64,000 nucleotides of DNA from Dehalococcoidia bacterium (lineage in GTDB: Bacteria > Chloroflexota > Dehalococcoidia > UBA2979): assembly GCA_965262725.1 (NCBI GenBank), contig OZ253555.1:2528001-2592000 (forward strand). Reading direction: 5' to 3'. Position 1 is the first letter of the stretch. Each line of letters begins with the position of its first letter. The position numbers and the translations under genes are program-made. Shown in pieces: positions 8,380-34,191 of this stretch. Under the pieces are notes generated by a model that worked only from the letters and a program-made list of their open reading frames with translations, had not been told where the DNA came from and did not search any database.

Positions 8380-9400
8380 CGGTGCCGCCTCGCACTTCCA
8401 CCGTGACGCGGTGGCCGACTCCACGCTTCTGTCTCCCGAGCACCGAGTCATAATGAGCTTCGTGTCCGGGTCGAGAGCCGTCCACGTGCGTCCGGAAGTC
8501 GAAGGGGTGGTGACGTGATGACGTGACCGGTCCGGAGACATGCTCGTTGCTGCCAGCCGGTGAGAGTCCGGCACGGGTAACTGTCAGGAGGCCCGTTAGC
8601 AGGTCGGCGGCGTGGACGGGAAACGGTCTGCGTCGAAGCCCGACGTCAAGAGCCCTATGAGGGGGAGCAAACGTGCGGTCCGCAGCATGACGCGAAGTCT
8701 GCCGCGCCGTGAGACTCGCCTGTCTATTGACAGGACCAAGGAGGAGCCGAGCCCGGGTGGTCAGGGCGAAGGCCATGGACGAGGTGAAGATCCTGGAATG
8801 CAGCCTCAAGAAACCTCCCGGCGTATGGGACGTGGAACGTACGGAAGGTAGCGACGGGAACCGGAGAAGCCCTCCCCGGCCCGGCACCCTGTGAGAGGGC
8901 GTCGGAGCGAGGCGTCCTATAACCGGTCAGAGCCGGGAAGTGGACAGCCAGCCGGAAGGGTGGCGGAGGGGGTCGTAGTACCGCTGGAGCCGGACGGACA
9001 ACATAACCGCCGGTGATGGGAAGGACCCCTACTTTGTCCGTGCATGTTGCTGGGGGTGTGGACTGGTGAGTGCCCCTCGGGGCTAGCAACCACTTGGTAG
9101 GGTTCGAGGCTCTCCGCACATGCTGTACCGGCTGGCCAAGGCACGACCCACGTTGTGGGGAGCGCTGCATGCCATCTGGTGAAGGGCATCGGTGAGCCGG
9201 ATGAGGGAGAACCTCACGTCCGGTTCGATGTGGCAGGGGCTGGAGACGGACGCTGCTATGGCCGTGGAGTTGGGCACCACCGGGAAACCGGCTTGGAACT
9301 GATGCGCCACCGCCTACGGCTCGCACCGCGCCAGCCCCTGACCCTACGTCCAAACAGTGCCAGGTGCGTCGGCACCCTTGCCGGGCGCTGGAGGACGAGA
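8380..9400 (-). pseudogene. IS1-family-like transposase fragment interrupted by group II intron
   Basis: Removing 8486-9347 restores GTVWT|WTALDPDTKLIM..GDRS, typical of IS1-like DDE transposases. Confidence 0.7.
8486..9347 (+). mobile_element. ORF-less group II intron, copy 1 (862 nt)
   Basis: 5' GTGCG, 3' CCCTGACCCTAC, domain V GAGCCGGATGAGGGAGAACCTCACGTCCGGTTC; matches reverse complement of 33330-34191; flanks rejoin in frame. Confidence 0.93.
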
Positions 9401-9473
9401 TAGTGAGTCGCATCATCGTCGGGTGCAGGCCGTTCCAGAATCCTCGTCCCGACTCCAAGCAAAGTGGGGAAGA

Positions 9474-9656
9474 ATGCTAGAGTCAGTCCTGCGTCGCACG
9501 GCTGAGAAGCTCGCCGCGTCGGGTGTGCTCGACGCCGCTGAGAACGCACGCCTGATGAGAGCGCTCGCCGACGGCCGCCTCAGGTCTATCGCCGAACTGA
9601 GCGCCTTCCTCGAGAAGCCCGCGGATACGGCCGAGGCCCAAACCGATGAAGATTAG
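9474..9656 (+). CDS. Small hypothetical protein (60 aa) coupled to the downstream ATPase
   Basis: ATG 9474 after GGGGAAG; overlaps start of 9646 ORF. Confidence 0.55.
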   Translation: MLESVLRRTAEKLAASGVLDAAENARLMRALADGRLRSIAELSAFLEKPADTAEAQTDED

Positions 9657-12084: not shown

Positions 12085-12189
12085 GCCGCGCCCGTGTCGC
12101 TGAACATCAAGTCCGGCGCCTGCGGTCCGGCCGGTCCGGGTCAGTGGCATCTGGTTGATCCTTGTCTTGATCTCGCGCAGCGCTTCGCC

Positions 12190-12580: not shown

Positions 12581-12593
12581 GCGGAGCGGGGCG

Positions 12594-12650
12594 GGGCGCG
12601 CTGTGAAGGATTCGAACCCACGCCCCCCAGTCCCATGAACTGATGCTCTC
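12594..12650 (-). other. Second degenerate tRNA-like 3' half
   Basis: Minus strand AGAGCATCAGTTCATGGGACTGGGGGGCGTGGGTTCGAATCCTTCACAGCGCGCC; homologous to 8185-8239, tRNA-Arg-like acceptor GCGCGCC. Confidence 0.55.
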
Positions 12651-14293: not shown

Positions 14294-14704
14294 ATGACGC
14301 TCCCGCTCTGGGGTTCCATGGGAATCGAGTGCGGGATTCGTGCCGGGTTCCGGTGTGAGTACTGTGACCGTGATCTTCTCTCGTCGCTGGACGACTACAA
14401 GGCGTGGGCACAGGATCACATCGTTCCCGAGAGGCTCGGCGGCGCGGACACGATCGAGAAGATGGCTGTGTCTTGTGATCCCTGCAATTCTGCCTACAAG
14501 AAGGCATGGAACCCGCGCTCCGTGGCTGGCGCCACGGCAAGTCGCGCAGAACTGATCGCCGCCACCCGAAGACTCATCGCCGAGAAGCGCGCGGCAGAGC
14601 AGGCAGTGCTCACTGAGGTCCGCGAAGTCACGGGGTGGTCTCTCGCTGGGAGCCTGGAGCCATCACCGTCGCCGACGCCCGGCTCCGCAGCGGCGTCTCC
14701 GTGA
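14294..14704 (+). CDS. HNH endonuclease
   Basis: CEYC...DHIVP..LGG.D....VSCDPCN motif; stop overlaps GTG of next gene (start could be further upstream, 14156). Confidence 0.85.
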   Translation: MTLPLWGSMGIECGIRAGFRCEYCDRDLLSSLDDYKAWAQDHIVPERLGGADTIEKMAVSCDPCNSAYKKAWNPRSVAGATASRAELIAATRRLIAEKRAAEQAVLTEVREVTGWSLAGSLEPSPSPTPGSAAASP

Positions 14705-17700
14705 CTGACGTCCGCGCCGTCGAGCAATCGTTTGGCGCAATCTACGCCGCCCTCAATCGACTCGATGAGCCCGGTGGCTCGGCACTACGGGATCACTACG
14801 CGCTGCAGTCAACCCGCGACGGTGATCGCGAGATTCTCAGTTCGGTAGGTGCCGGCAGTCGCATGAACATGCTCATCGGGGCGAGGGCGCAGTTGAGCCG
14901 GTCGCTTGGCGGAGGCGTGAGCTCGGGTCTCGCAGATCTGGTGGCCCGCGTATCGGCCCTGACCGGCGAGTCGCCAGTCTCTCCTGAAGTGTGCCGCACA
15001 CTCGCGAGCCGCGTCGGTGGCGTGGACGCTGCCGATCTACCGGCGCTGCTGAGCGCCCTTAGCGGTGTGCAGCCTGCGGGGTGGGCGCGGTGGAGCGCGT
15101 ACGACATCTGGAATGAGTCCCTCATCGAGGAGTTCTTCAGCGGGTCGCGAGCGGGGCGCCCCGTCTACCTTGACCTCGAAGCGGATGTCGTCGAGCGTTT
15201 AACGGCCGCTATCGGTGCTCCGGCAGGCGCAGCCGCACCGGACGCTACTCGGGCGTTCAGTAGGTCGGTTGTACGGACCTTCGAGTTTCGACTCGACGGC
15301 CCTCCGATGCTCAGGGAGCATGTTCGAAAGGCTGTGACCTGGGCCGCTTCAGCGCCACGGGGCGATGGCGGCGAGGGCCACCCAGGCATCCGGCCTCCCC
15401 CGTTCATCGCTGCTTTGGGCCTCTTCTCGCTAGCAGCAGAATCGATGCGCTCGGGCGAGGGGATGCGTGCCACCAACTACTACGGGCGGCTCTGCGAGCG
15501 TCTTGAGGTGGGTAGCGACGCCGTAGCGCGCAAGGTTCAGAATGACTTCAGGCGGCACGCCAACAGGCTGTGGGCACATCTGAACGCGTGGTTGCGACGG
15601 GCCCACGGCGCGCGGGGTATTCCGACTGCCGAGGCGTTCGACCACCGTGTCTACGTCAGCATCCCCATCTCGCAGGCGCTCGTACGTGCGGCCGACCGGG
15701 ACCGGCTCTCGGAGTTCTTCTCGGCGTACCAGCTGAACCCCGGACAGCAATTCTCGAGACTCGACATGCGCGAGATTCTCGCTGCGTGGTTACCGGGGTC
15801 GCATCTAAGCGCGTCGTTGAAGTCCCTCTGGCGTTCGAGTCAGGAGGCCCGCCGCCGCATCGCGGACGTCGTGTGCATCGAACTTGAACATTGGGACGGG
15901 ACAGCCCCCCCTGAGCACTCTAGCTCGCAGCGACACTTCGACGCGGTCCTCGCAGCGAGTTACGAGGAGGTCCCCTTCCCGGAGTTCTCCATCGCTCTCG
16001 TAGTGCGCGACGAGGGTGACGTACCGGACGGCCGTTACCGCTTCGACGACGGCTCCGCACTGCCGGGCTTTTCTGGTGCGGTCCACGCCGTACGCGAGTC
16101 CGGCGGCTTGATCAGGCTCCAGCCGGCGACGCCGCAGTCCATGGGTAACGGGCTTCTCAACTCGGTGTTGCGACATCCGCTGGGCCTCGCACACGAATCG
16201 CGACCCGCGACGATCTCACGACCGAGCCGCTCGGTCGTGGTGTTCTTGATGGACGAATCGCGAGGATTGTTCACCGAGTCGGCGCGAGTCGAACTGGGCA
16301 GGGAGCACTTCATACTGGTGAGGAACGGTCTCGCAGCCCAGGTGCGCGGCGCCCTCGGCGAGATCGCACGGCCGGGTTATCGAGCGCTGAGTGGCGTAGC
16401 TGGTGTGCCTGATGGCTGGATGCTGTACATCGGCGTTCACGTCCGGTCACTGCTTACCGGCGCGTCTGAGGCACTCACCACCCTCGTTCCTCTGTCAACC
16501 ACGCAGGTCGACCTGACCGGTGGCATGCAACTCTCCGCTGGCCGCTGGCACTCGTCATCGCCTCCCGATGTGATGGCGGTAGACGCGGCCGGAAGGCGCT
16601 TCGCCGTCAGTCTGTTCGACGAGTCCGGTACGAGCGGCGAGTTCGTAGCAACGCCGCTCGGCACGCACTCCGGTGAAGCGCGGATCTCGCTGCGCGAGCT
16701 CGGGCTTGTTGATGGCAACTACCGGATCGTCCTGAACGAAACAACCCCGTCGGGCGGAATAGGCTCTCATCTCACGTCGCGCGGGCTCAGACTCAGGTCG
16801 GCGGAGTCGGCGCACCTTGATCCGCCCACGGATGTCTGTCTCGCCCACCAGGCAGGACCGTCGCCCGACGGATGGACCGCGCTGTCAGCAACGAGTCTTG
16901 ATGTATCGAGCACGGCTGCGATACGTGGCGCGGCCATCTCGGGTACTGAGGCCGGCCCGCGGCCAGTTCCCCCGGTGCGGCTGCCTGCTCGACTGGGCCG
17001 CAGTGTCTCCGTTAGTGATGTCGGCAGCCTCTCGCGGCTCTTTCCGAGAGCACATCCTGCCGCGATCGAGGCCGAGCTCGAGCAACTCATGCGTCTACAT
17101 CTGGTATCCGTCGACGACGGGAAGCCGCGGCTGACGCCGGCGGGGTACGCCTACGCGAACGAGGGCCTCAAGTCATCAGGCAGGGCGGTCACACGAGCCG
17201 GCACGACTCCACCAGACGAGATCGCCAGTCGCTTCGAGGCGGACCTCGACCTCATTCTCGATGCGCTGGGCGCAACTGGCGGCGGCACGTGGCGATCGCT
17301 GGAGCAGCTCATCAGGTACTCCAGCGTTGAGCGGTGGGAGCCGCTGGAGGCAGCCCGGAACCTCAGCGCGCTTGGCTACATTGATCTCGAGCTTGACCAC
17401 CACTCACAACGACCCCTGCGCTGGTCCGCAGCCCCAGCGACGATGGTCGTTCTGCCCGACGGCCTCAGCGCGTTCATCGCTGGCGCCCGCTCGGAGCCGT
17501 TGCTGCAAAGGGTCGAGGCAGAGGCCCGGCAGCTCGGGGGATCGATGTTTCGCCATGAGAGAGGCGGCCGGCCGGTTCTCGTTCAAGTGCACGGCCTCCA
17601 GGGTCGCGCCTTCGAGACGGTTGCTCAAAGGGCTAGCCTGGCGTGTGTGCGAGACGTGCCGAGACGCATCGCCCAGATGTTGCCGGCGATCCGCGATGTC

Positions 17701-18129
17701 TACAGGGAGCGCCCGGAGTTCTATCCACCTCAAGGCGCTTCCATTGAGCAGTTCGACTTCGGCACGAACACGTGGCGAGACGTCGAGCGAATCGAACTGT
17801 CCGGTGCCTACCGGATCACCGCGGACACGCGTCACTATGCGGCTCTGGCTGACGACGGGCTGCGCGAATGCGGCAACGCGGTGTCGAAGTATGCGGGCGC
17901 TGCGGCGACGGGCCGGAGCATCATGTCGTACAGCGTCGGCGATGAGAGACTGACGTGCCTGCTCGGGGCGCGCCCTCCCGGCCTCTACGAGCGGGTGCTG
18001 GTTCTTTGCACGGGTGAACTGCCTCGATCACTTTCAGACGGGACGTCCGTCTATGAAGGGGTCCCGCCGGGAGTCGCCGCCTGGCTAGCAGCGAGTCTTG
18101 GCCCTCACTCTTGGGAGACAGGGAGTTGA
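14701..18129 (+). CDS. Large Druantia accessory-like protein (DruH-like, or DruF/G-like fusion), 1142 aa
   Basis: Long ORF from GTG 14701, translationally coupled to a DruE-like helicase; NYYGRL...YVSIPISQAL block; assignment rests on size and context. Confidence 0.55.
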   Translation: MTDVRAVEQSFGAIYAALNRLDEPGGSALRDHYALQSTRDGDREILSSVGAGSRMNMLIGARAQLSRSLGGGVSSGLADLVARVSALTGESPVSPEVCRTLASRVGGVDAADLPALLSALSGVQPAGWARWSAYDIWNESLIEEFFSGSRAGRPVYLDLEADVVERLTAAIGAPAGAAAPDATRAFSRSVVRTFEFRLDGPPMLREHVRKAVTWAASAPRGDGGEGHPGIRPPPFIAALGLFSLAAESMRSGEGMRATNYYGRLCERLEVGSDAVARKVQNDFRRHANRLWAHLNAWLRRAHGARGIPTAEAFDHRVYVSIPISQALVRAADRDRLSEFFSAYQLNPGQQFSRLDMREILAAWLPGSHLSASLKSLWRSSQEARRRIADVVCIELEHWDGTAPPEHSSSQRHFDAVLAASYEEVPFPEFSIALVVRDEGDVPDGRYRFDDGSALPGFSGAVHAVRESGGLIRLQPATPQSMGNGLLNSVLRHPLGLAHESRPATISRPSRSVVVFLMDESRGLFTESARVELGREHFILVRNGLAAQVRGALGEIARPGYRALSGVAGVPDGWMLYIGVHVRSLLTGASEALTTLVPLSTTQVDLTGGMQLSAGRWHSSSPPDVMAVDAAGRRFAVSLFDESGTSGEFVATPLGTHSGEARISLRELGLVDGNYRIVLNETTPSGGIGSHLTSRGLRLRSAESAHLDPPTDVCLAHQAGPSPDGWTALSATSLDVSSTAAIRGAAISGTEAGPRPVPPVRLPARLGRSVSVSDVGSLSRLFPRAHPAAIEAELEQLMRLHLVSVDDGKPRLTPAGYAYANEGLKSSGRAVTRAGTTPPDEIASRFEADLDLILDALGATGGGTWRSLEQLIRYSSVERWEPLEAARNLSALGYIDLELDHHSQRPLRWSAAPATMVVLPDGLSAFIAGARSEPLLQRVEAEARQLGGSMFRHERGGRPVLVQVHGLQGRAFETVAQRASLACVRDVPRRIAQMLPAIRDVYRERPEFYPPQGASIEQFDFGTNTWRDVERIELSGAYRITADTRHYAALADDGLRECGNAVSKYAGAAATGRSIMSYSVGDERLTCLLGARPPGLYERVLVLCTGELPRSLSDGTSVYEGVPPGVAAWLAASLGPHSWETGS

Positions 18130-21100
18130 TGTCGCAGCCGCGAGACGTCTACCGGCAGATCGCCGACGCGTACCTCCGGTACTACGACACCGCCTTCTGG
18201 GTGCGAACCCCCGAGGTGCGAGCCGAGCGCCGTCACTTGCTCGCTACGGAAGGGGTCATCACGCGAGAGCCCCTCCTGGAGCCGGTGCTTCCGTACCCTC
18301 CCGCGGAACCTCTCGCACAGGTGACCAGACGCGTTGGTCTCAGCCCGGGAGTCTCCGACACGCTGGCCAAGATGCTGTTCCCAGGGCTGGCGACCGGCGC
18401 GGCCTTCCGGTTGCGGGAGCACCAGGGGAGGGCACTAGAGCTCTCGCTCTCGGACGCTGGTGCGGGCCCGGTGAACCCCGTGATTACCACCGGAACCGGA
18501 TCAGGCAAGACGGAGAGCTTTCTGCTGCCAGTGTTCGCCCGCCTGCTGCGCGAGGCGGAGCAGAACGGCGGTTGGCGGGCGGACGCCAAGCCAGTTCACT
18601 GTTGGTGGGACGAAGCTGAGGGGTCGGCGTGGGAGCCGGTGAGAACCTCTCGCGAGGAACGGCCAGCCGCGGTTCGGGCGCTGATCCTCTACCCGACAAA
18701 CGCGCTCGTTGAAGACCAGATCACTCGAATCCGGAGAGCTATTCATATCGCGGCCCGCCCGGACCGGTCGGGGCCGCAGTTCTTCTTCGGGCGGTACACG
18801 GGTGAGACGCTCGGCGGGGCGCGCATCCAGCGGCCCGCTGCGCTCCGAGGCCAGCACGTCCTCCAGGTGGCACGCGAGGTCCGCCAGATGGCTGCCGACG
18901 CTGCGGGGCTCGCCGGCGAGCTCCGTGTGCAGTTCCCTGACCCGGTTCGCGGCGAGATGGTAACCCGCTGGGACATGGTCGCAGCGCCTCCGGACATCCT
19001 CGTGTCAAACTTCTCGATGCTCAACGTGATGCTGATGCGGGGCTTTGAGGATCCCCTCTGGGCACAAACTCGCGCCTGGCTGCGCGACGACCGAAACGTC
19101 TTCACTCTGGTTATCGACGAGCTTCACCAGCAACGCGGTACGCCCGGGAGCGAGGTTGCATTGGTCATCCGCAACCTGCTCATGCGGCTGGGCCTGGAGC
19201 CGGACTCCCCGCAGCTACGTTGCATCGGAACGAGTGCATCGCTGGAACCTGGGGGCCCCGCGTCCGGCGATGGGCTGCCCGAGGAATATCTCGAGCAGTT
19301 CTTCGGCGTCCCACGGAACCGGTTCGAGATCGTGCCCGGCACACCTGTAGTGCCGTCCTCAGAGCTCCCCCTACCGCGAACTCGCTTCGAGGAGATCGCC
19401 AGCCTAGAGGGAGCTGACCGCAGCGACGCGCTGCTCGATGCGGTTGAACGGTTCCAGCTGCCGGAGGCCGTTGCGTCGAGCTGCGCGGGATCACCGCCAC
19501 GCGCGACCGCGATCCGCGAGATCGAGCAGTCTCTCTTCGGGGATGTCGTGGAGGGGTCACCCGCCATGGATATTGCCCTCGAGGCTCTCGCAGCCCGGAC
19601 CCCGGACGCCGGGGCAGTGACCTTCCGGTCGCACATGTTCATCCGGAACGTGACCGGCTTGTGGGCCTGCTCAAACCCGAACTGCCGCGACCTCGACGAT
19701 CGGTGGCGGCACGCCGATCGCCGCATCGGCAGGCTCTTCACGTCCCCGACTCCGGCCTGTAGCTGCGGATCGCGCGTCCTCGAGCTCCTCTACTGCGAGC
19801 AGTGCGGTGAGGAATCGCTGGGCGGGATCGTGGTTGCCAGGGAGGAGACCGGCGGCTCGCCATCGTGGTACCTGGGCGCGGAGGAGGCAGAGTTCCCTCC
19901 CGTCCAGCAGGCTCGGGTCAACCAGCGGCTCTACGACCGCTACATGTGGTACCGGCCGGGGCCACCAGAACCCGGGACAGACGGATGGTCACACGACAGC
20001 ACCCGACTCGCGTTCGCGCCTGCTACCTGGATGCCCGAGGTTGGCCTCCTTCGCCGAACCCCGCCGGGGCGCGATCCAACGGGAACGATCCTCCTGGCGA
20101 GCGGCGCCCCAGATCCTGAGCATGGCGCCGTCCCCGCGATTCCCGAGCGCTGTCCGAATTGCGCTCATCGCCGCCACAACCGACCGCGAGACTTCTTCCG
20201 GGGTACCGTTCGAAGCTCTATCCGCGGGATGAGGACCGGTTTCGCGCGCGTCAGTCAGGTGGCGCTTGACCAGCTCATCCGAGCGCTCGCCCATGACGGT
20301 GGCGAACCGAGAACGATCGTCTTTTCCGACAGCCGTGATGAGGCCGCTGTGGCTGCCGCAGGGATCGAACTGAACCACTTCCGTGACTTGGTGCGCCAGC
20401 TCACGGACCGGTTGCTCGGCGAACAACGCTCGCTCCCCGCTCTCATGCTCTCAGCAGCCCATGGAAAGGACCCGAGCGGTAGTGAATCGGCCCAGCTCGA
20501 GCTCGCGAAGAGCGAGCACCCCGATGTCTGGGCCGCGTACCAGGCCGTGCACCGGTACGGCGTCGACGATGACTCGGCGCGGGCCGCGATCGGTGCCTTC
20601 GAAGAGGTCCAGGCTGGTACGGCCCAGAAGCTCTCGTGGGACGATCTCCTGCGCCGGCTTGAACGAGCACTCGTCGCGCTCGGAGTCAATCCCGCCGGTC
20701 CGGGGGCCAGCCACTCGCACTGGGGGCCCGGAAGGTCGTTCCGGTGGTGGCAGGCCTACGCCCCACCGACACCTGGAGCCTGGGAGGTCGCAGGTTCGGC
20801 GGTCGACCGCCGGGTACAGTCGGGCGAAGTGCGCGAGCAAGAGCTCTCCGTCACCCTGTTCTCGTCCCTCTTCGACTTCACGGCCCGGGACTTCGAGTCG
20901 CTCGGGCTCGGCTGGATCGAACCAACGCGGACCGGGCCTGCGTCCATCGGTTCTCTTTCGCCCGCGGAGACGCGAGAGCTGCTCCTCAGCGCGATTCGCA
21001 TCCTCGGTCTCGCTGGCACGTACCCCGGTGCGCGTTGGTTTACGGGCCGCGAGAACATGCCCGTGGCGCTGCGAAAGTACGTCCGCGCCGTCGCAGACCT

Positions 21101-23537: not shown

Positions 23538-23649
23538 TCGCCGCCCGTTCACCTCAACCGCTTCCGATCGCGTCGATCTCAGCGACGCAGTTCGCGGTCC
23601 TCTCGGACTGCGTGTGTCAGGCGGCCTTCGGACGCGACCCGTTGTTGTA

Positions 23650-23833
23650 GTTGACCGGACCCCTTCGCGAGGCTACCGCTATGAGAGTCCACCCGATTGT
23701 TCCGCCCTCCATTGCTCGGCGTAGGTAGCCGGGGAGAGCCAGCCCACGCTGATGTGCGGCGCGTCGTGCTGTACTCGATCCACCAGTCCTCGATCAGCAC
23801 CTGCGCCTCGAGCAGGCTGTCGAACCGCATTGC
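23650..23833 (-). pseudogene. IS3-family transposase C-terminal remnant
   Basis: FDSLLEAQVLIEDW.IEY..., then GWLSPATYAEQW in another frame, ending near GGGGTCCGGTCA terminal-repeat-like sequence. Confidence 0.65.
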
Positions 23834-24975
23834 GCTGTGAGCCACGCGCGGTAGCCCGCAACTTCGTAGCGGGCATCGGTCAGCAACCGTTCCGTCTCGC
23901 CGATCAATTCTTCATTCAAGTCCGGCTGCTGTTCAAGGGTGGTGTCGACATCTAGACGGCGGGTTGAGCGCTTCACGATGGCCTTCGCGGTTGCGCACTC
24001 ATCTACCGATGCCGGCGCGGCCAGCGAGAACGCGTCTGGCGACGCTGCGATGACCGGATCGAAGCGAAGGGCGAACGAGACCAAGTCCTCCCGGACGGCA
24101 ACGGGATCGATTCGGTACCCATGTGTGCTTGCGAGCTGGACGCGACTGGGACCATAAACCTGCACCAGCGCCGACAGCCACTTGCAAATGGCAGCGGTCA
24201 TGAGAATGAGAAGGTCGGCCTCGCTGCACGTCGCAGGATCAATGGACTCCACATCCGATTCCAGTAGCTCCTCGCACGCTTCGGCGAATCCCTCGCAGTT
24301 GGCGACATTCTCACGAAAAAGACCCATGAGCCGCTGCTCGGCACCTGCGTCAAACATCCCACGTCCTATCCTCGTCGTGATGAGCAGAAGCCATGGGTTG
24401 TGGTTTCGCGCTTGAAAAGCCGTCAGCTGCGCCAGTGCCTCGTAGATCGATCCGCCGCTCTGCGGCGACTCGGATGCAAGCCCGTCGCAGAGGTCAATGT
24501 TGACAACATCGAACGGGCCGAGCTGCTCGGTCCGAGACCACGCGATCGACTTCGGATTGCCGATGCGCCGGAAATCATCGTGAATTACCCTGGACTGCGG
24601 ATCGACATTTGGCAGCCGCCGTACTTCGTCGAGCGAAACGCTCAGTTGGAGGTGCGCGGAGTTGCCGGGCTGCGCTTCCGTGTTGAATCCAAGGAAGCGC
24701 AGTGGGCGGTCGGTCGCTCGGCAAAGCTCCTCGTGCAGGTACCGCAGATCGATCAAGTCTGTACCAGGCAGGCCCAAGTAACGCAGCGGATCCCCCGGTT
24801 CCCGCTTCTCGTAGAGGCGCCGGAGCAAGACTGACAACTGCTCGCGCCGGACGAACTGCTTGCGTGGCCTGTGCCACGACTTGAACTCCTTCGGTTCCGC
24901 CTGCGTAGGCAGATATTCGATACCGCCAAAGATTCCTGCGATTAGATCGTCATGATCGCCCGATTGCTCGGTCAT
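23794..24975 (-). CDS. Conserved hypothetical partner of the MORC ATPase, possible Rossmann/methyltransferase-like fold
   Basis: WHRPRKQFVR, LRYLGLPGTDLIDL, FDVVNIDLCD; ATGA overlap with the MORC gene; last residues come from the IS3 remnant. Confidence 0.7.
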   Translation of the reverse strand: MTEQSGDHDDLIAGIFGGIEYLPTQAEPKEFKSWHRPRKQFVRREQLSVLLRRLYEKREPGDPLRYLGLPGTDLIDLRYLHEELCRATDRPLRFLGFNTEAQPGNSAHLQLSVSLDEVRRLPNVDPQSRVIHDDFRRIGNPKSIAWSRTEQLGPFDVVNIDLCDGLASESPQSGGSIYEALAQLTAFQARNHNPWLLLITTRIGRGMFDAGAEQRLMGLFRENVANCEGFAEACEELLESDVESIDPATCSEADLLILMTAAICKWLSALVQVYGPSRVQLASTHGYRIDPVAVREDLVSFALRFDPVIAASPDAFSLAAPASVDECATAKAIVKRSTRRLDVDTTLEQQPDLNEELIGETERLLTDARYEVAGYRAWLTAQCGSTACSRRRC

Positions 24976-26936
24976 TGATCGGACGTCTCGAGGATCTGAC
25001 GCATCCCGGAGAGGAGCCGTTCCTGCTGCTGGTCGGTCAGGCCCTCAAAAACTCCATACGCGGCGAGGACCTGGACGATCGTGCGCAGCTTACGCTCGGC
25101 TGAATCGCCCCGGCGCGTGCCCCGCCGGTCGAGTTCGCGGAAGACCGGCTCGCGCCTGAACCGATACGCTCCGGGCCTGGCAGGTGTCAGCTCGTCGGCC
25201 TCATCGGCGAAGTCGACCGGCGGCGGTTCCGCGCCTGGATCGTCGGACTCGTCCCGCCATGCTCGGGCTGCGACACTCGACAGAGCCTCCTCTTCCTCGT
25301 CCGCGGCGGCCTCGCGGGTAGCTGTGCGGATTGCAGCCGCGATGCGCTTCTGAACCGTCGCCACGCGCCTGAGCGACGCGTGGAGCCACTGCGTGAGGTA
25401 TACGACGTGTGGATGGGCGTAATTGAACGACTCACGATCGATGTTCAGCGCCGCTTCCAGACCCTCCGAGACAAATATCTCACACGAGATCTGCCTCAGC
25501 CGCGTCTGCTCGGATACCTGATACCGCAGGAACGTCGGGTCGAACAGCGTTCCGCTCGATCCGTGAACCCGGACGAGAACGCCCTGATGCTCGGTAGGAG
25601 CGATCTTCGGCGCCCACATGAGGTATGCCTCGAACTCAAGTGGGCCGCCAGTGAGTTCGGGCGGCACGCCGTCGAATTCCTCTCGGCATCGTCCGACGAC
25701 GAGGATCGGCTTCTTGACTGCGTGGCTCGTCTCAGGGAGATTCCTGAACAAGAGGGGACGAGCGAGCCGCAGGTCGTCGACGAGTACAGTGAAGTCGCTC
25801 CCGACATCGGCTGCAGAGCCGATCGACTTGCTCAGGCGAATTGTCTCGTCGTCGGTGAGTTTGAACTCGGCTGCTGCTTCTCTGATGGACTGCGGCATTT
25901 CGAAGAGACGGAGCTCGTCCTGAAGCAGAAGGTCGAATGGGTTACCCGAGACGTACGGCGCGGGAATAGCCAGACTCAGCTGCCACACCATCCGGAGGTA
26001 GTAGTCAAAGATGCGTTCGAGCTGGGGGTTGGGTGTTCCTCGCTCAACGCGCTGCCATACAGCCTTGACCAGCTTCTCGAAGGCGACCTCTGGTCGATCA
26101 TCGCGAGACCACGGGAGGCTGCTGTAGGCATCGGCGTCATTCTGGAGAACACCGGCGTCATCCGGCCGCACGCGCCCGATGTGGAAGTCAGGCGGCCTGA
26201 GGTCCCGGTTCCTCGCTTCGCTAGGCGCCAAGGCGGGGTCGGAATCGATAACCGCCCACAGGTCACGGCTCTGGAGCCTGTCGCGAGTCTGCGGCCGTAT
26301 GTCAGTGAGGATGATCGTCGTACCGTGCGAGTGGGCGTCGGAAGCTGGCTCGCGCCAGATCGTCACCCGCCCCGCCTCGTACGCCCCTTCTTCGTTCGGC
26401 CTAGGCGCACCCTCGTCCGAGTATTGGCGGAGCACGACCGATGCGATGGTCCGGAAGGGATCACCAGCTGTCGTCGTGATGATCTGGAAGCGGTGGGTCA
26501 GCTGGGCGACTGAGAAGAGGCCGATCCCAATCTTCCCGATGAGTCGGCGCCCCGACGGGCTGAGCGCTAAGTCCGTGGTACTCGCGATTCCAAGCTCGGC
26601 TCCATCGGGTGACCGCTTCGCGCTGCCCCCGATGTGGTGGAGCAGGTGGGCAAGAGCGGCGGGTGTCATACCCATGCCGTCGTCCTCCACCGACAGCGCG
26701 TGGAACCGGGGTCGATCGGTCTTTATGACTACCTGTTTCGCATCTGCGTCGTAGGCGTTCGACACAAGCTCCCGTATCGCCGACCCCGGCTGCCGGTAGA
26801 TGCCGTCAGTGACACGGGCAAGAACCTGCTCGTCTGTCCGGAGAACGGTGCTGACGGGGGATTCGCTGGAGCTGACTGCTATATGGGCAGCGAGGACGGC
26901 GTCCTCCTCGCGTCGTGGATCGTGCGCCGGGGTCAC
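24972..26936 (-). CDS. MORC/GHKL (HATPase_c_3) ATPase
   Basis: IRELVSNAYDA, VEDDGMGM, IGKIGIGLFS, HGTTIIL GHKL motifs; LNIDRESF S5-fold motif; probable GTG start 26936. Confidence 0.9.
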   Translation of the reverse strand: MTPAHDPRREEDAVLAAHIAVSSSESPVSTVLRTDEQVLARVTDGIYRQPGSAIRELVSNAYDADAKQVVIKTDRPRFHALSVEDDGMGMTPAALAHLLHHIGGSAKRSPDGAELGIASTTDLALSPSGRRLIGKIGIGLFSVAQLTHRFQIITTTAGDPFRTIASVVLRQYSDEGAPRPNEEGAYEAGRVTIWREPASDAHSHGTTIILTDIRPQTRDRLQSRDLWAVIDSDPALAPSEARNRDLRPPDFHIGRVRPDDAGVLQNDADAYSSLPWSRDDRPEVAFEKLVKAVWQRVERGTPNPQLERIFDYYLRMVWQLSLAIPAPYVSGNPFDLLLQDELRLFEMPQSIREAAAEFKLTDDETIRLSKSIGSAADVGSDFTVLVDDLRLARPLLFRNLPETSHAVKKPILVVGRCREEFDGVPPELTGGPLEFEAYLMWAPKIAPTEHQGVLVRVHGSSGTLFDPTFLRYQVSEQTRLRQISCEIFVSEGLEAALNIDRESFNYAHPHVVYLTQWLHASLRRVATVQKRIAAAIRTATREAAADEEEEALSSVAARAWRDESDDPGAEPPPVDFADEADELTPARPGAYRFRREPVFRELDRRGTRRGDSAERKLRTIVQVLAAYGVFEGLTDQQQERLLSGMRQILETSDQ

Positions 26937-27582
26937 CGATTCCCCCAGCTGCGCGGATGGAGAGGATCCAGCGCTTGTCGCCGTGGGGGCCGCACGGCCG
27001 CGATCCATGCCGACGAGCATCGAAGGCCCGTCACCCCTCGGGGGTCCGAGTCCGCGTCCAGCAGGGGCGGCGTGAAGTGGAGACCAGCGGCGTTCTCGAC
27101 GATGTGCGAACCCGCCAGCGCTCCGCGCTGGCGGTCGAGGGCGTAGCTCGTTTGAAGAAGGTAAGGGGCCATTTCACCCTGTCACACCCACCCCACTCTA
27201 CAGGGACGATGTGGACAGTAGCTTCGCGAGGAGCGCTGGTTTCCGCCAGATGGCGATGACGTCCGCGCGTTTATGCGAGGTTACACACCGCCCCCCGACG
27301 GGAGGTGATGGTGGAGGCCCTCAACGGGGTCGGGCATTCCGATACACTGCGCTACAGGTCGAGGCCCGACGCGGGGCCAGAATCAGGTTCCGGGCTGAGT
27401 CCGCATCGTTCTCGCGTGGCGGAGTAGCGGCGAGACCTGAACCCGCCCCGGCTCCGAGGGTGGCTGCGCCAGCTCTTAGGTCGAGCAGCCCCCGGAGAAG
27501 AAGGCGCACGGAACCGGCATCGGCGGTGCGGTTGTGCTTACCATGATCCGGGCTGCCTCTCGGTCGGAATGCTGAGGACTGA

Positions 27583-29388
27583 ATGCAAGTCAGATCGCTT
27601 GTCGGCGCTGGACTGATCTCCCGTATCGACGAGTTGCTGGAGGCCCGGTACCGGTCCGCTGATCTGGGGAACATGGAAGATCCTCTGGACGAGACCATGT
27701 ACATCCTGCTGAGCAGGCAGACGCAGGAACCTGTCTACAGGCGGATGTACCAGAACCTCCGGCGCTGCTATCCGAGCTGGAATGACGTGCTTCAGGCTCC
27801 GGAAGAGCACCTGTCCCTTCTACTGCGCCCGGCAGGGCTCCATGAGCAGAGAGCTCGGCAAGTGAAAGCTCTACTTGCGGCAGTGCAAGAGGAGAACCGT
27901 CGGCGGGGTGTCGGGCCGGCCGCAATACCTGCAACCGACCTGACCCTCGACTTTCTCCGGACGCTCGGTGACGAGGAGGCTGAACAGTTCCTGATCCGAC
28001 TGCCGGGCATCGGCCCGAAGAGCGCACGCTGTGTCCTAGCGTATTCGCTCAACCGTCCCGCGTTCGCTGTCGACACGCACGTTCACAGGGTGTTCTCCCG
28101 GCTGGGCCTCGTCACACCGGCCGGAAGGAAGAAGGATCACGACCCATTCCAGGACGCGGTTCCCAAGGGTGCTCGGAAGCGGTTCCACATCAACCTCATC
28201 CACCACGGACGCGCGATCTGCCGTGCCAGAAGGCCGAAGTGTGGGGATTGCGTCCTCGTGTCGTTCTGCCCGGAAGGGCGCAAGACCGTAGCCAACAACG
28301 GGCGTCCCGCCGTGGTTGATCTCTTCGCCGGGGCTGGTGGCCTCGGCTATGGCTTCAGAAAGGCTGGCTTCCGTGTGGCACTTGCTGTCGAGTCAGACCG
28401 GCATGCGGCGCAAACCTATCGCCTGAACAACCCGGGTGTCCCCGTGATAGAGGCCCAGATCGATGCAACCACCTCATCACACCAGCTAGCCCGCTTCATG
28501 CCTGGCGTCGAGCAGGTCATGGGACTCCTCGCGGGTCCGCCGTGCCAGGGATACTCAGCCGCCGGTGCGCGTGACCCCGATGCCGAAGGGAACTTCCTGT
28601 ACCGGCAGGTCGCGAGGCTGGCAGCGGAGCTACGGGCTGAGACCGTCTGCCTCGAGAACGTTCCAGGCGTACGGCGCGTCAGGGGCCACGGCTTCCTTGA
28701 CTCCATCCTACAGAGCCTCCGCGACGCGGGCTTTGCGACCGATGCTCACCTGGTTAATGCCTGCGACTTTGGAGTCCCACAGCACAGGGCACGCTATCTC
28801 TTCCTCGGGCGCCGAGGCGAAGGAACATCCCCTCCTCCTGGACCGGGTGCAACACACCGCTCCCACGGGGAGGCCGCACCGAGCCACCTGCCGGAGGTCC
28901 CCACTCTTCGCGATGCACTCGCCGCCCTGCCCGAACTTCCCGCCGGCACCACTGGAGAGCCCGTAACAGGGCCCGACGGTAGGGAGTACTTCAACGTTGA
29001 GACGATGGCACACTCGGAGCGTGTGGTGGCCAAGATCAGAGGGATCAAGCCTGGTGAGGGCCCCATCTCGTACAGACGCCTCAAGGACGATGAAGCGCGC
29101 ACGTTGATCGCTGGGCACCGCGCCCTTCCCGTCCATCCATGGCTTGACCGGACCATCTCGGTGCGTGAGGCGGCGACCATTCAGGGGTTTCCGCATCACT
29201 ACCGTTTTTCCGGACCCCGTTCAACCCAGCCTCTCCAAGTGGCTAACGCAGTTCCGCCACCGCTTGCGGAGGCTGTCGCCCTCCACCTGATGCGGGTGAC
29301 CAAGGAGGGTCGCGCACCCGCGGACCCTTCCGAGGCCGCAGCCGCTGATGCCAACGGAGCAGGTCCGCGCCAGCCGCCCGAAGCCTGA
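27583..29388 (+). CDS. Fusion: HhH-GPD [4Fe-4S] DNA glycosylase (EndoIII-like) + C5-cytosine DNA methyltransferase
   Basis: N-term LLSRQT, LPGIGPKSARCV, VDTHV, C-x6-C-x2-C-x5-C; C-term DLFAGAGG, GPPCQGYS, ENVPG, QHRARY, REAATIQGFP, QVANAVPP, all in one frame. Confidence 0.92.
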   Translation: MQVRSLVGAGLISRIDELLEARYRSADLGNMEDPLDETMYILLSRQTQEPVYRRMYQNLRRCYPSWNDVLQAPEEHLSLLLRPAGLHEQRARQVKALLAAVQEENRRRGVGPAAIPATDLTLDFLRTLGDEEAEQFLIRLPGIGPKSARCVLAYSLNRPAFAVDTHVHRVFSRLGLVTPAGRKKDHDPFQDAVPKGARKRFHINLIHHGRAICRARRPKCGDCVLVSFCPEGRKTVANNGRPAVVDLFAGAGGLGYGFRKAGFRVALAVESDRHAAQTYRLNNPGVPVIEAQIDATTSSHQLARFMPGVEQVMGLLAGPPCQGYSAAGARDPDAEGNFLYRQVARLAAELRAETVCLENVPGVRRVRGHGFLDSILQSLRDAGFATDAHLVNACDFGVPQHRARYLFLGRRGEGTSPPPGPGATHRSHGEAAPSHLPEVPTLRDALAALPELPAGTTGEPVTGPDGREYFNVETMAHSERVVAKIRGIKPGEGPISYRRLKDDEARTLIAGHRALPVHPWLDRTISVREAATIQGFPHHYRFSGPRSTQPLQVANAVPPPLAEAVALHLMRVTKEGRAPADPSEAAAADANGAGPRQPPEA

Positions 29389-30640
29389 ACTACCCCCGCA
29401 ACACGTAGTGGCTGGGTTGCTGCCTGGACGCACTCCGCCCACGGTCCGAACGGGGGCGGCTGGGCCGCGCTCATACGAAGCGGCCGACCTGCGAGTCAGT
29501 CGCGGCGCGGCACTCGTGTAACGCGGCGAGTGTGGGGAACGGGCCGAGCGCAGGACGCACAGCGACAAGACGCGGAGGTTCGCGATGTCAGCACTCACTA
29601 GTGTCCCGAGTTGCAAATGCTGAAAACAATCGCACCGAGCCTCGCAGGCCTGGTCCGCTCAGTGGAGGCTTGGGTCGCAACTGGAAACGAGCACCGGAGG
29701 CGCTTCATCTCGCACAAACCGCCGACCAGATCCTTGAGTAGGGTCAGGGGCTGGCGCGGTGCGAGCCGTAGGCGGTGGCGCATATTGCCAGGCCGGTTTC
29801 CCGGTGGCGCCCATCTCCACAGCCGTAGCATCGTCCGTCTCCAGCCCCTGCCGCCTCGAACCGGACGTGAGGTTTTCCCTCATCCGGCTCACCGATGCCC
29901 TTCACCGGGCGGCATGCGGGGTGCCCCGCCACGGTCGATATGGCCGTGGTGCCACGACGCGCTGTCCAGCTAGCGAGATGAGCCCCAGACGGTCGGCGAC
30001 GGGAAACGGGTGCCCGCGATGGCGTCGCCGCCAACGCAACCGCTTCCCCAGCCAGAGTTTGAGTCTCCACATGGCAAACCAGTGCAGGACGTCGAACGCC
30101 CTCGCCGAGTTGCCGTAGCGGAAGTAGCTCATCCAGCCGCGGAGGTAGCGATTGACTTCCTCCACGACCTGCCGGGGACTCAGCAGCAGACGCAACCGCG
30201 CCGTGATTTCACGGATGCGGTCCCGCGCCCGCTGCATCGCTCGCCGTGAGGGCCAGCGTGCGAGGAACTGGATATTCTTGTTGCGCTTCGCACGTACCCA
30301 GCGATGCTCGAAGCCGAGGAACTCCAGCCCCTCGCCTCCCTCCCGCAGGTGCACGATGCGCGTCTTCTCCGCCTTGAGCTCCAGTCCGAGCTCACCCAGC
30401 AGGTCACGCAGCAGGGCCAACGCCCGCTCCGCTTCCTCCCGGCTCCGGCAGAGCACCACGAGGTCATCCGCATAGCGCACCAGCACGCCATCACCCTTCG
30501 CCTCCCAGTCCCGGTGGGAATGATGCTCTGAATTGGCCCCACCTGGAGCCGTTTTGATCCTTTGAATTGGCCCCACCCCCGACCCATCCAGGATCTACGC
30601 TCGGGTGACTGCATGACTCCCGGAGCGAGGGAAGAGGAGT

Positions 30641-32275
30641 GTGTCGAGAGTGGAGCTGTTCGAGTCTATCCGACGGATGGCGAGGGAGGAGGAGCTGTCG
30701 ATCCATGAGCTGGGACGCCGGCATGGCGTGCACCGGCGCACGGTGCGGCAGGCTCTTGGGTCGGCGATACCCCCGGAACGCAAGCAGGCGACCCGCGTGG
30801 CCCCGAAGCTCGGGCCGTACGTCTCGGTCATCCGGGGCTGGCTCGTGGACGACCTCAGCGCGCCGCGCAAGCAGCGGCACACGGCCCGGCGCATCTGGGA
30901 GCGCCTCGTCGACGAACACGGGGCGACGGTGGCCGAGCCCACGGTCCGCGCCTGCGTCGCGCGCCTGCGTCGCGAGATCCAGGGCGGGCGCGCGGTTGTG
31001 ACGATCCCGCAGGTCCATCCTCCCGGCGAGGAGGCGGAGGTCGACTTCGGCACGGTGACGGTGTGGCTGGAGGGCGTCGAGACCCGGCTGGCGATGTTCG
31101 TGATGCGGCTCTCGCATTCGGGGCGGGCGGCGCACGTCTGCTTCGTCGGCGAGGGCCAGGAGTCTCTGCTCGAGGGGCACGTGGTCGCCTTCGAGCGGCT
31201 CGGCGGAGTGCCGCGGCGCATCCGCTACGACAATCTGACGGCGGCCGTCACCACCGTGCTGCAGGGACGCGAGCGCCTGCAGACCGAGCGCTTCATCGCG
31301 CTCCGCTCGCATTACGGCTTCGACAGCTTCTTCTGTGAGCCCGGCATCGAGGGCGCGCACGAGAAGGGCGGTGTGGAGGGCGAGGTCGGCCGCTTCCGCC
31401 GGCGGCACTTCGTGCCGGTCCCGAAGGTGGCGACCCTCGGCGAGCTGAACGAACGAGTGCGGGAGGCGGACCGCACCGACGACGCCCGGCACATCGAGAG
31501 CCGCCTCGCCACCGTCGGCGAGATGGGAGAGAACGAGAAGGCCTCGCTGCGTCCGCTTCCGGCGGAGCGCTTCGACCCGTCAATCCCGCTGCGCGCGAAG
31601 GTCGACCGCAAGGCGCGCATCGCCGTGCGTAGCTCCCGCTACTCGGTCCCGGCGGCCTATGCAGGCCGGAAGCTGGACGTGCGGCTGTCCGGGAACAGCC
31701 TGACCGTGTGGGCCGAGGGGCGTGAAGTCGCCCACCACGAGCGCAGCGCCCGCACCGGAGCAGAGGTCCTGCTGCTCGACCACTATCTGGAGGTGCTCGC
31801 GCGCAAGCCCGGGGCGGTCCCGGGCTCGGTGGCGCTCCAGCAGGCGCGTGCGAAGGGACACGTCACAGCCGAGCATCAGCGCTTCTGGGACCGCGCCCGC
31901 CGCAAGCTCGGCGACCGCGCGGGCACGCAGGCGTACATCGAGGTCCTGCTCCTGCATCGCCATCTTCCCTTCACGGCGGTGCACGCCGCGCTCGGGACGG
32001 TCAACAGGATCCAGTCGGTGAACCCCGAACTGGTCGCCATCGAGGCGCGCCGTCTCGCCGACCGCAGGCCACCAGACGCCGCCGTCGAGAGACCGCACCT
32101 GGAGCGCTACGACCGACCTGCCCCGCTCCTCGATGGCTACGATGCGCTGCTCTCGGGTGATTCCCGATGGCCCGGCACGTCGCCGGGCGGGCGCTCCCGC
32201 GCTCCGCGGTCTGCCGAGAACGCGTCGCACACCACCACAACCGCCGTCACCGCTGCGGTGTCGACGGCACGCTGA
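30641..32275 (+). CDS. istA: IS21 transposase IstA
   Basis: HTH, EAEVDFG, RIRYDN, HEKGGVE DDE motifs. Confidence 0.95.
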   Translation: MSRVELFESIRRMAREEELSIHELGRRHGVHRRTVRQALGSAIPPERKQATRVAPKLGPYVSVIRGWLVDDLSAPRKQRHTARRIWERLVDEHGATVAEPTVRACVARLRREIQGGRAVVTIPQVHPPGEEAEVDFGTVTVWLEGVETRLAMFVMRLSHSGRAAHVCFVGEGQESLLEGHVVAFERLGGVPRRIRYDNLTAAVTTVLQGRERLQTERFIALRSHYGFDSFFCEPGIEGAHEKGGVEGEVGRFRRRHFVPVPKVATLGELNERVREADRTDDARHIESRLATVGEMGENEKASLRPLPAERFDPSIPLRAKVDRKARIAVRSSRYSVPAAYAGRKLDVRLSGNSLTVWAEGREVAHHERSARTGAEVLLLDHYLEVLARKPGAVPGSVALQQARAKGHVTAEHQRFWDRARRKLGDRAGTQAYIEVLLLHRHLPFTAVHAALGTVNRIQSVNPELVAIEARRLADRRPPDAAVERPHLERYDRPAPLLDGYDALLSGDSRWPGTSPGGRSRAPRSAENASHTTTTAVTAAVSTAR

Positions 32276-32291
32276 CCACAGGAGGCACCCG

Positions 32292-33074
32292 ATGACAGCA
32301 CCCCTCACCGACCAGGCCGCGGAGCTGACAATCGAGGCGATCTGCCGCGAGCTCCGTCTCCCCACCGTCAGGAAGCAGGCGCTCCCGCTCGCCGAAGCCG
32401 CGGTCCGAGACCGGATCACCCATCTGGGCTATCTCGCCGAAGTGCTGGGAGCCGAACGCGATGACCGTGAGGAGCGGCGCCGTCAGCGCCGTATCGTCGA
32501 GGCGCGGTTCCCGCGTTTCAAGTACCTCGCCGACTTCGACCTCGAGGCGGCGCCGACAGTCGACGCGCCGGCGCTCGCCACGCTGGAGCGCTGCGACTGG
32601 GTCGAAAGGGGCGAGCCCGTCGTCCTGCTCGGTGACAGCGGCACCGGGAAGTCACACCTGCTCATCGGCCTCGGCATGGCCGCCTGCCACCTGGGGCTGC
32701 GCGTGCGGTACATGACCACGGCCGCCCTGGTGAATGAACTGGCCGAAGCGTCGGATGATCGCGCGCTCTCACGCCTCGTCGCCCGCTACGGCCGCCTCGA
32801 CCTGCTCTGCCTGGATGAGTTCGGGTACGTCCACCTCGACCCGCGCGGTGCCGAAATGCTGTTCCAGATCCTGACCGAGCGCGAGGAACGGGCATCGGTC
32901 GCCGTCGCCTCCAACTCCCCGTTCTCCGAGTGGGGCCGCATCTTCACCGACCCTCGTCTCGCCGCGGCCGTCGTTGACCGCCTCACCTACCGTGCCCATA
33001 TCATCGAGACCGGCACCGAGTCCTACCGGCTCCGGGCCTCGACCTCCCCGAGAGGAGGTGCCCCAACGACCTGA
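32292..33074 (+). CDS. istB: IS21 helper ATPase IstB
   Basis: GDSGTGKSH, LCLDEFGY, AVVDRL; GGAGG before ATG 32292. Confidence 0.95.
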   Translation: MTAPLTDQAAELTIEAICRELRLPTVRKQALPLAEAAVRDRITHLGYLAEVLGAERDDREERRRQRRIVEARFPRFKYLADFDLEAAPTVDAPALATLERCDWVERGEPVVLLGDSGTGKSHLLIGLGMAACHLGLRVRYMTTAALVNELAEASDDRALSRLVARYGRLDLLCLDEFGYVHLDPRGAEMLFQILTEREERASVAVASNSPFSEWGRIFTDPRLAAAVVDRLTYRAHIIETGTESYRLRASTSPRGGAPTT

Positions 33075-33329
33075 TCCCGGTCCCCGGGGGTGGGGCCAGA
33101 TCAGAGGATCAAAGTGGGGCCAGATGTAAGCATCATTCCCAGTCCCGGTCCAACCGGTGCAGGTAGACATTGGCCAGCAGCGGGGACATCACCCCGCCCT
33201 GCGGCGTACCCGTCGCGCTGTGCTGCACGACCCCCGACTCCATCACACCGGCACGCAGCATCGCCCGTACCAGCTTCAGGAGATTGCGGTCGCATATCCG
33301 TTCCTCGACGGCCGTCATCAGACGGTCGT

Positions 33330-34191
33330 GTAGGGTCAGGGGCTGGCGCGGTGCGAGCCGTAGGCGGTGGCGCATCAGTTCCAAGCCGGTTTCCCGGTGG
33401 TGCCCAACTCCACGGCCATAGCAGCGTCCGTCTCCAGCCCCTGCCACATCGAACCGGACGTGAGGTTCTCCCTCATCCGGCTCACCGATGCCCTTCACCA
33501 GATGGCATGCAGCGCTCCCCACAACGTGGGTCGTGCCTTGGCCAGCCGGTACAGCATGTGCGGAGAGCCTCGAACCCTACCAAGTGGTTGCTAGCCCCGA
33601 GGGGCACTCACCAGTCCACACCCCCAGCAACATGCACGGACAAAGTAGGGGTCCTTCCCATCACCGGCGGTTATGTTGTCCGTCCGGCTCCAGCGGTACT
33701 ACGACCCCCTCCGCCACCCTTCCGGCTGGCTGTCCACTTCCCGGCTCTGACCGGTTATAGGACGCCTCGCTCCGACGCCCTCTCACAGGGTGCCGGGCCG
33801 GGGAGGGCTTCTCCGGTTCCCGTCGCTACCTTCCGTACGTTCCACGTCCCATACGCCGGGAGGTTTCTTGAGGCTGCATTCCAGGATCTTCACCTCGTCC
33901 ATGGCCTTCGCCCTGACCACCCGGGCTCGGCTCCTCCTTGGTCCTGTCAATAGACAGGCGAGTCTCACGGCGCGGCAGACTTCGCGTCATGCTGCGGACC
34001 GCACGTTTGCTCCCCCTCATAGGGCTCTTGACGTCGGGCTTCGACGCAGACCGTTTCCCGTCCACGCCGCCGACCTGCTAACGGGCCTCCTGACAGTTAC
34101 CCGTGCCGGACTCTCACCGGCTGGCAGCAACGAGCATGTCTCCGGACCGGTCACGTCATCACGTCACCACCCCTTCGACTTCCGGACGCAC
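33330..34191 (-). mobile_element. ORF-less group II intron, copy 2 (twintron inside the RT ORF)
   Basis: Same 862 nt as 8486-9347, reversed; removal restores RT codon C|AC (ESIPHDRL). Confidence 0.94.

Follow-up and report, generated by a model that had tools for sequence, protein, structure and literature searches.

A non-autonomous ORF-less group II intron nested in a related intron's reverse transcriptase gene, and the predicted homing of this element into reverse transcriptase genes of its own family

The 64,000-nt stretch analyzed here (positions 2,528,001 to 2,592,000 of contig OZ253555.1, assembly GCA_965262725.1, from a Dehalococcoidia bacterium; hereafter the window) carries two copies of a group II intron without an open reading frame (ORF), one of them nested in the reverse transcriptase (RT) gene of a second, RT-encoding group II intron. 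Our analysis makes it probable that the ORF-less element is a non-autonomous intron that is mobilized in trans and homes into the RT genes of its own intron family, where it forms twintrons; that the copy outside the RT gene is an ectopic insertion; and that the RT-encoding intron of the window is dead. The copies and the intron that surrounds the second of them are located as follows:

8486–9347, + strand: copy 1 of the ORF-less group II intron, 862 nt, intergenic
33330–34191, − strand: copy 2 of the ORF-less intron, 862 nt, inserted in sense within the outer intron's RT ORF
29738–35307, − strand: group II intron that encodes an RT (outer intron), 5570 nt with its two insertions

The two copies are identical at 862/862 aligned positions. 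Their flanks are unrelated, with three of four upstream bases shared (CCAC vs. CCGC) and no alignment downstream, and it is because CCAC and CCGC are alike that a self-BLAST match runs 4 nt past the copies. As only these four upstream bases are similar and nothing downstream aligns, the copies represent separate insertions and not a duplicated block of DNA. An initial annotation of the window had described identical copies in unrelated targets and an ORF-less group II intron with recent mobility despite having no ORF of its own, a description that holds up: the copies are identical, the flanks differ when checked for shared sequence by alignment, and both sites fit the exon-binding sequences of the intron. 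The copy coordinates given there are likewise correct, but the feature does not end at 34191, since the outer intron reaches 35307.

Both copies match the Rfam model RF02003 (group II D1-D4-4; 102.8 bits, gathering score 49), and both begin with GUGCG (8486 in copy 1) and end with CUAC (to 9347), which fits the conserved 5′ GUGYG and 3′ AY. The remaining ribozyme parts and the coding remnant, in copy 1, are:

9194–9226, + strand: domain V (D5), matched by RF00029 and by D5-only models, a standard hairpin in the fold of 9185–9347
9232–9343, + strand: extended domain VI (D6), ~115 nt, fold of 9185–9347 with a z-score of −4.6
9066–9143, + strand: RT-ORF remnant in domain IV, with a GTG start at 9066, an in-frame TAG at 9084–9086 and HMLYRLAKA at 9117–9143

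In the fold of 9185–9347 the bulged branch-point A of D6 lies at 9341, 7 nt from the 3′ end, and a ~65-nt insertion in D6 (9251–9323), which is also present in the outer intron and in the related intron L001 and absent from L004–L006, makes the extended helix. Domain IV retains ~26 N-terminal codons, including the HMLYRLAKA that had been recognized from the start as a scrap of an RT N-terminus (the outer intron has RTLYRAAKA in its place), and, besides these, ~12 C-terminal codons past a deletion junction located at a short CGACC repeat. The consensus fold of nine introns, computed with RNAalifold, comprises 139 pairs, 37 of them with compensatory changes. From its sequence, the element is predicted to be an ORF-less group II intron whose ribozyme appears complete and whose exon-recognition layout is IIB-like. 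Its predicted exon-binding sites (EBS), whose partners in the exons are the intron-binding sites (IBS), are:

8755–8763, + strand: EBS1, terminal loop GGGUGGUCA of a conserved hairpin at 8751–8767, core GUGG at 8757–8760
8713–8718, + strand: EBS2, GACUCG, followed by a small hairpin at 8719–8734 (pair probability 0.87–0.96)
8826, + strand: EBS3, U in a 3-nt internal (coordination) loop, with partners G at 9348 and A at 33329

These assignments were evaluated against relatives of the intron, which comprised seven introns on actinobacterial plasmids (~76% identity, all with an RT gene) and at least 110 stretches, drawn from one genome per species, of which 80 came with 2-kb flanks. The EBS1 test used the 100 of 107 aligned introns that have a canonical 5′ end. 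Among the introns listed, positions 3–6 of the loop pair with exon positions −1 to −4 at 4/4 in 32 of 50 distinct combinations and at 3/4 in a further 16, the last two pairing at 2 and 1, whereas non-cognate combinations reach 4/4 in 4.2%; both window sites pair 4/4 with the GUGG core. In the consensus fold (nine introns) the motif occupies the terminal loop, 9 nt long, of a hairpin conserved as GCC-GCCC/GGGC-GGC, and in the equivalent GCCC-loop-GGGC hairpin the outer RT intron has GGCAAUUCA (35056–35048). The cognate versus non-cognate pairing therefore identifies the loop that the initial annotation had named as EBS1 (GTGGTC) as the predicted EBS1, with covariation and the consensus fold in agreement. 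Within the 100 introns compared, a GUGG core occurs in the ORF-less intron only, and varied loops are normal in this family (48 distinct pairings among 97 related introns compared). A group of 22 related introns (L003, L005, L006, and L013 among them) share, among the introns listed, EBS1 GAAA and the 5′ exon end TTTC. Sequence of the CTAGCCTCG...TTTC type precedes many members of the family, a hint of a widespread shared target that may be another mobile element.

EBS2 forms 6/6 pairs with CGAGUC at −14 to −9 of the insertion site of copy 2 (site 2), a pairing that had been put forward earlier as GACTCG/CGAGTC, and 4/6 at the insertion site of copy 1 (site 1). A family test in fixed register is positive, with a mean of 3.00/5 for cognate and 2.22 for non-cognate combinations (at least four pairs in 39% and 15%, respectively) and with other registers performing worse; an unconstrained search for EBS2/IBS2 helices barely separates the two (4.26 cognate vs. 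3.71 non-cognate). For EBS3, position 8826 is the sole alignment column with the expected pattern, the outer intron having A in its place. EBS3 and IBS3 are paired in 29 of 30 intron/exon pairs, 24 of them Watson–Crick and all four bases being used, compared with 0.44 expected from base frequencies; this count left out 20 loci that had no 3′ end or no EBS3 motif by pattern. In the consensus fold the EBS3 nucleotide is unpaired between two helices, as befits a IIB coordination loop.

Copy 2 lies within the outer intron and on the same strand, a twintron arrangement. The outer intron is itself recognized by RF02003 (95.3 bits; 35103–35239, −) and RF00029 (41.5 bits; 29825–29892, −), and ~187 bp of its flanks (29598–29737 plus 35308–35354) are present twice more in the window, uninterrupted. 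Its ends are therefore fixed independently, by two empty target copies. Its components and these targets are:

35056–35048, 35079–35074, and 34974, − strand: EBS1 loop, EBS2 CGGAUA, and EBS3 A of the outer intron
34193–34756, − strand: RT ORF piece 1, 188 codons, RVT_1 positions 1–88, ending ...CFESIP
33142–33329, − strand: RT ORF piece 2, HDRLM...LDRD, RVT_1 88–141, between the inner intron and an insertion sequence (IS)
29902–30514, − strand: RT ORF piece 3, WEAKGDG...YADD..., RVT_1 147–204, GIIM maturase domain, and stop
30515–33141, + strand: IS21-family element, 2627 bp, with istA at 30641–32275 and istB at 32133–33074
53930–54117, − strand: empty target of the outer intron, junction 54071/54070
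57217–57402, + strand: second empty target, junction 57262/57263

The outer EBS2 forms 6/6 pairs with both empty targets and 5/6 with its own occupied site. The two empty targets are inverted and bracket 3.1 kb with two ORFs without a Pfam match (54223–55146 and 55416–56219).

The RT of the outer intron lacks an endonuclease domain, and its gene is broken twice. At copy 2 the exon junction reads ATA CCG C/AC GAC CGT (I P H D R), and the public RT P0002 (445 aa, cluster of 51 sequences), nearly identical to the three pieces, is uninterrupted at both breaks, reading ...CFESIPHDRLM... and ...LDRDWEAKGDG... across them. The proposal that copy 2 stands in sense and that splicing would restore the RT frame (IP/HDR) thus agrees with a protein that runs through the same junction, and the two insertions look like the sole lesions of the gene. 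The second lesion, the IS21-family element, which the initial annotation had not listed, lies in domain IV of the outer intron. It is bounded by the inverted ends TGGGAATGATGC/GCATCATTCCCA and flanked by a target duplication of 7 bp, GTCCCGG (30508–30514 and 33142–33148); another copy at 59554–62180 is 99.9% identical and has the target duplication ACGATC. Given that this element also cuts the RT gene, the locus cannot make RT, and whether the inner intron splices makes no difference here. The outer intron is, on this evidence, a dead end whose RT cannot be the helper.

The two introns are 86% identical over D1–D3 and 89% over D5–D6, and EBS1, EBS2, and EBS3 all differ between them. The ORF-less intron is therefore not derived from the RT intron of the window, and the 'retargeted EBS1' of the initial annotation understates the difference. 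Substitutions between inner and outer intron fall in 35/259 unpaired and 19/278 paired columns; the 14 pairs that differ include four compensatory changes, six kept by a one-sided change and four broken in one intron. Both introns look constrained as ribozymes on this count, and the ORF-less element would have arisen by deletion from a full-length member of the same family, not from the outer copy.

To locate the best targets for the intron, both copies were removed in silico and every position on both strands was scored over 13 pairing positions (n = 124,502). The two occupied targets are:

34205–34192, − strand: target site 2, in the RT ORF; IBS2 CGAGUC at 34205–34200, IBS1 CCGC at 34195–34192, IBS3 A at 33329
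8472–8485, + strand: target site 1; IBS2 CGAGAG at 8472–8477, IBS1 CCAC at 8482–8485, IBS3 G at 9348

With a score of 11.5, site 2 is the unique best of all positions scanned. It splits the RT at ...FESIP/HDRLM..., position 88 of 205 in the RVT_1 profile. Among the stretches listed, tblastn matched 66 RT loci of the family, of which five end before the site and 61 could be assessed. The homologous site provides IBS1 at 4/4 together with a paired IBS3 in 45 of these 61 genes, and within those 45, 19 also offer at least 5/6 pairs to EBS2, compared with a window background of 3.1% and 0.10%, respectively. Family RT genes match the EBS of the intron because they encode a conserved peptide, C-F-E/S-A/S-I-P-H. 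No occupied homologous site was found among the 61 loci.

Occupied sites appear instead among the fetched proteins. Four of 237 (P0126–P0129; 193–194 aa) end in ...CFESIP followed by RASGSRR(G/A)GDVMT and a stop, and this tail is the read-through of the first 41 nt of the ORF-less intron in the frame that the split His codon imposes; the 5′ end of the outer intron would encode a different peptide. The four proteins are 83–93% identical to the window RT and to one another, save P0127 and P0128, which are 99% identical. The read-through tails thus point to occupation of the same junction in at least four other RT genes, belonging to three further RT lineages, as would be expected if a single inner intron had recently homed into outer introns that had diverged. 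Such insertion explains RT predictions truncated at ~193 aa that end in RASGSRRGGDVMT. A unique best site in the window and four other RTs with the same junction and tail argue, therefore, that the RT motif is a recurrent homing site, a predicted regular home of the intron and not a chance target. P0014 is an intact 442-aa RT, 87% identical. The longest contig listed for P0129 and for P0121 (a 60-aa protein also encoded in the window) has 3,674,403 nt, and that for P0014 has 3,674,387 nt; another twintron (P0129) and an intact family RT (P0014) may thus reside on one replicon or on two nearly identical ones.

We propose the following scenario. An in-frame deletion of nearly the whole RT/maturase ORF in domain IV of a full-length, endonuclease-less actinobacterial intron would have produced the ORF-less element. 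It would then have spread by reverse splicing into DNA that pairs with EBS1 GUGG, EBS2 GACUCG, and EBS3 U, using the RT/maturase that a related intron at another place in the cell provides in trans. The homing site cognate to it would be the DNA for the conserved CFE(S/A)IP/H of the RT domain of its own family, and it would therefore insert in the RT genes of related introns and form twintrons. Copy 1 would be an ectopic insertion at a poorer match upstream of a small gene.

An alternative, advanced in the initial annotation, is that the element is a satellite of this very RT intron and that expression of the helper RT hinges on splicing of the satellite, a form of regulatory coupling. The insertion is in sense and in the middle of the RT domain, so that an otherwise intact twintron could make RT only once the inner intron was removed, and four other RT genes have an insertion at this junction. 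Such coupling cannot, however, operate in the window, where the IS21-family element breaks the same gene; the introns are too different, in identity and at all three EBS, for the outer copy to be the parent; and the inner intron, to be spliced in vivo, would probably itself need maturase from another copy. Accepting that the element sits in an RT gene of its family, we thus find it doubtful that this gene is that of 'its helper' or that RT expression at the locus depends on splicing of the intron.

That the RT-gene insertion was a chance ectopic retrotransposition, with the true home at site 1 or at a site not seen here, is very unlikely. Neither site is perfect, site 2 having a G–U pair in IBS1 and a mismatch at −6; set against this are the rank of site 2 as the single best of 124,502 positions, the four diverged RT genes that break at this very nucleotide and read through into the same peptide, and the matching IBS1 and IBS3 in 45 of the 61 listed family genes as opposed to 3.1% of the background. 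We give equally little credence to the idea that the intron is a fossil which still splices but no longer moves, its copies being old. The window contains no intact RT, and according to one review (PMC4424553) bacterial ORF-less introns are rare and derivative forms have mostly lost mobility; yet the copies show 0 differences in 862 nt where proteins of the outer intron family diverge by 7–17%, and the same 5′ end recurs in four diverged RT genes. Finally, DNA-level duplication, gene conversion, or an assembly artefact, from any of which perfect identity over 862 nt would also be expected (as from a collapsed or duplicated repeat), is a negligible prospect given that the shared sequence ends exactly at GUGCG and CUAC between unrelated flanks without target-site duplication, that both flanks pair with the EBS sequences, and that removal of copy 2 recreates the exact frame of the intact P0002.

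Several observations weigh against a trans-mobilized intron that homes into RT genes, or against parts of the evidence for it. Folded as a single sequence, the 862-nt intron gives the EBS1 hairpin a pair probability of 0.16 and lacks it in the minimum-energy structure; on the question of whether the loop is EBS1 in the folded structure, which the initial annotation had raised, the consensus fold thus agrees and the single-sequence fold, where the hairpin is not formed, does not; support for the hairpin is comparative. Family support for EBS2 is moderate only and weaker than that for EBS1. The RF00029 score for D5/D6 of the ORF-less intron, 37.5 bits, is under the gathering score of 40, owing to the unusually long D6 (~115 nt). 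Site 1, with a score of 9.5, is middling, 232 of the 124,502 sites being as good or better. No intact RT gene lies within the window, whose sole RT gene is broken twice. In P0126–P0129 just 13 read-through codons are visible, and the inner elements there could be full-length relatives.

The rarity of the element points the same way. The distance from the EBS1 hairpin to D5 is 448 nt in the ORF-less intron, and a D5 within 1200 nt of that hairpin occurs in 0 of the 82 listed family loci that have at least 700 nt downstream; D5 lies at 1283–1703 nt in 47 of them and is not found in the downstream sequence (700–2950 nt) of the other 35. None of 34 plasmid records retrieved by blastn holds at least 80% of the element, and a sublineage DNA pattern around the EBS1 loop (50 positions, 44 specified) matched 0 stretches in genome_contigs. 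The 35 loci without a D5 include L002, L003, and L007, and the annotated RT is cut short in L003 by IS3-family transposase genes and in L007 by integrase genes; disruption of family introns by other mobile elements seems common.

A bolder version of the proposed homing is conceivable, although we do not favor it: the intron might be a hyperparasite dedicated to the family of its helper, with three EBS that have evolved to read the codon-constrained DNA for CFE(S/A)IP/H. If true, almost every RT gene of the family would present a homing site, one that is hard for the helper to lose by mutation, and each insertion would make RT production conditional on removal of the parasite, a brake on the copy number of the whole family.

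The general arrangement is already known from the TeI3/TeI4 twintrons of Thermosynechococcus and the nested introns of Methanosarcina, those of Methanosarcina acetivorans having reportedly been described by Dai and Zimmerly in 2003 (RNA 9:14). By title or abstract, no actinobacterial twintron or ORF-less intron is described in the literature searched. Thermosynechococcus elongatus has ORF-less TeI3 introns, RT-encoding TeI4 introns, and twintrons (Mohr, Ghanem, and Lambowitz, 2010; PMC2882425), and that paper reveals a series of likenesses: TeI3 has a domain IV deletion with N- and C-terminal ORF remnants; the intron-encoded proteins (IEPs) of related introns mobilize the ORF-less ones, as we predict for the intron of the window; EBS1, EBS2, and EBS3 vary from one family to another; ORF-less introns lie in the ORFs of RT-encoding relatives, the inner introns identical and the outer ones diverged; and one outer ORF is also interrupted by an IS. 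According to the same paper, the insertion in T. elongatus lies between the first two ATGs and the IEP is still made from the second, whereas in the window the insertion is in the middle of the RT domain (RVT_1 88/205), where splicing would be obligatory and no downstream start offers a bypass. The host phylum also differs, the IEP of the window lacks an endonuclease, and two copies are seen in the window compared with 17 in T. elongatus (PMC2882425).

According to PMC4424553, bacterial ORF-less introns are in nearly all cases accompanied by related IEP-encoding introns in the same genome, and the introns of M. acetivorans home into other group II introns. There, too, ORF-less and RT-encoding introns coexist, and site-specific homing into related group II introns, including their ORFs, provides a perpetual homing site; the Methanosarcina introns differ in being archaeal and in nesting to as many as five levels (PMC4424553). 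A group II twintron of Trichodesmium is reportedly likewise a bacterial intron within an intron (Pfreundt and Hess, 2015; PMC4649490).

What the element adds to the cyanobacterial and archaeal precedents is the target, a conserved and functionally constrained RT motif and not a dispensable 5′ region, and the occupation of the same junction in diverged RT genes (that of the window and at least four others). The element offers a clean natural case of an intron without a protein gene that would live off its relatives via their RT genes, in a high-GC defense/IS island, and a usable system for the co-evolution of ORF-less introns with a shared trans-acting maturase, a subject that bears on models of how spliceosomal introns originated. 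Among the closest DNA relatives is an intron on plasmid pRHL1 of Rhodococcus jostii RHA1 (76% identical over D1–D3). From the name of its organism, L004 may be Rh.js.I1. Endonuclease-less intron varieties include a group 'g1' with Rh.js.I1, and the IEP of the window resembles them in having no domains besides RT and maturase (Toro and Martinez-Abarca, 2013; PMC3552965). The IEP of the window is possibly of the g1 variety, a lead that comes from this DNA similarity and that study.

Downstream of copy 1, at a distance of 126 nt, begins a 60-aa gene (9474–9656) that has homologs of 60–67 aa and overlaps the start of an SMC/LmuB-like ATPase gene, both genes being in the same orientation as the copy. 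We read this copy as an ectopic insertion in an untranslated region, at a less well matched target. A 164-codon open frame across the copy 1 exon junction was considered as a gene and rejected, homologs of its downstream part being just 60–67 aa long, and a scan for promoters and terminators around copy 1 found none. Two direct repeats (8172–8239 and 12581–12648), 71% identical, resemble a − strand tRNA gene in its 3′ part (GGTTCGAATCC-type arm). They lie on either side of copy 1 and the SMC-like ATPase gene, and they may be what is left of attachment sites; ARAGORN found no tRNA in the window.

Further along, 1123-bp inverted repeats (50107–51229 and 52811–53933), 99% identical and each with a DDE_Tnp_1/DUF772 transposase, flank 1.6 kb with an ORF lacking a Pfam match. 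The window as a whole is a defense island, with the genes concerned at 1158–6576, 14635–29388, and 37411–50110. They include a Cas3 gene with GSU0054/GSU0053-type cas genes, Druantia-like matches to DruF, DruE (1527 bits), and DruM, a GajA/GajB pair, a match to a type IV restriction enzyme, PD-Lambda-1, and matches to ZacA, ZacB, and ZacC.

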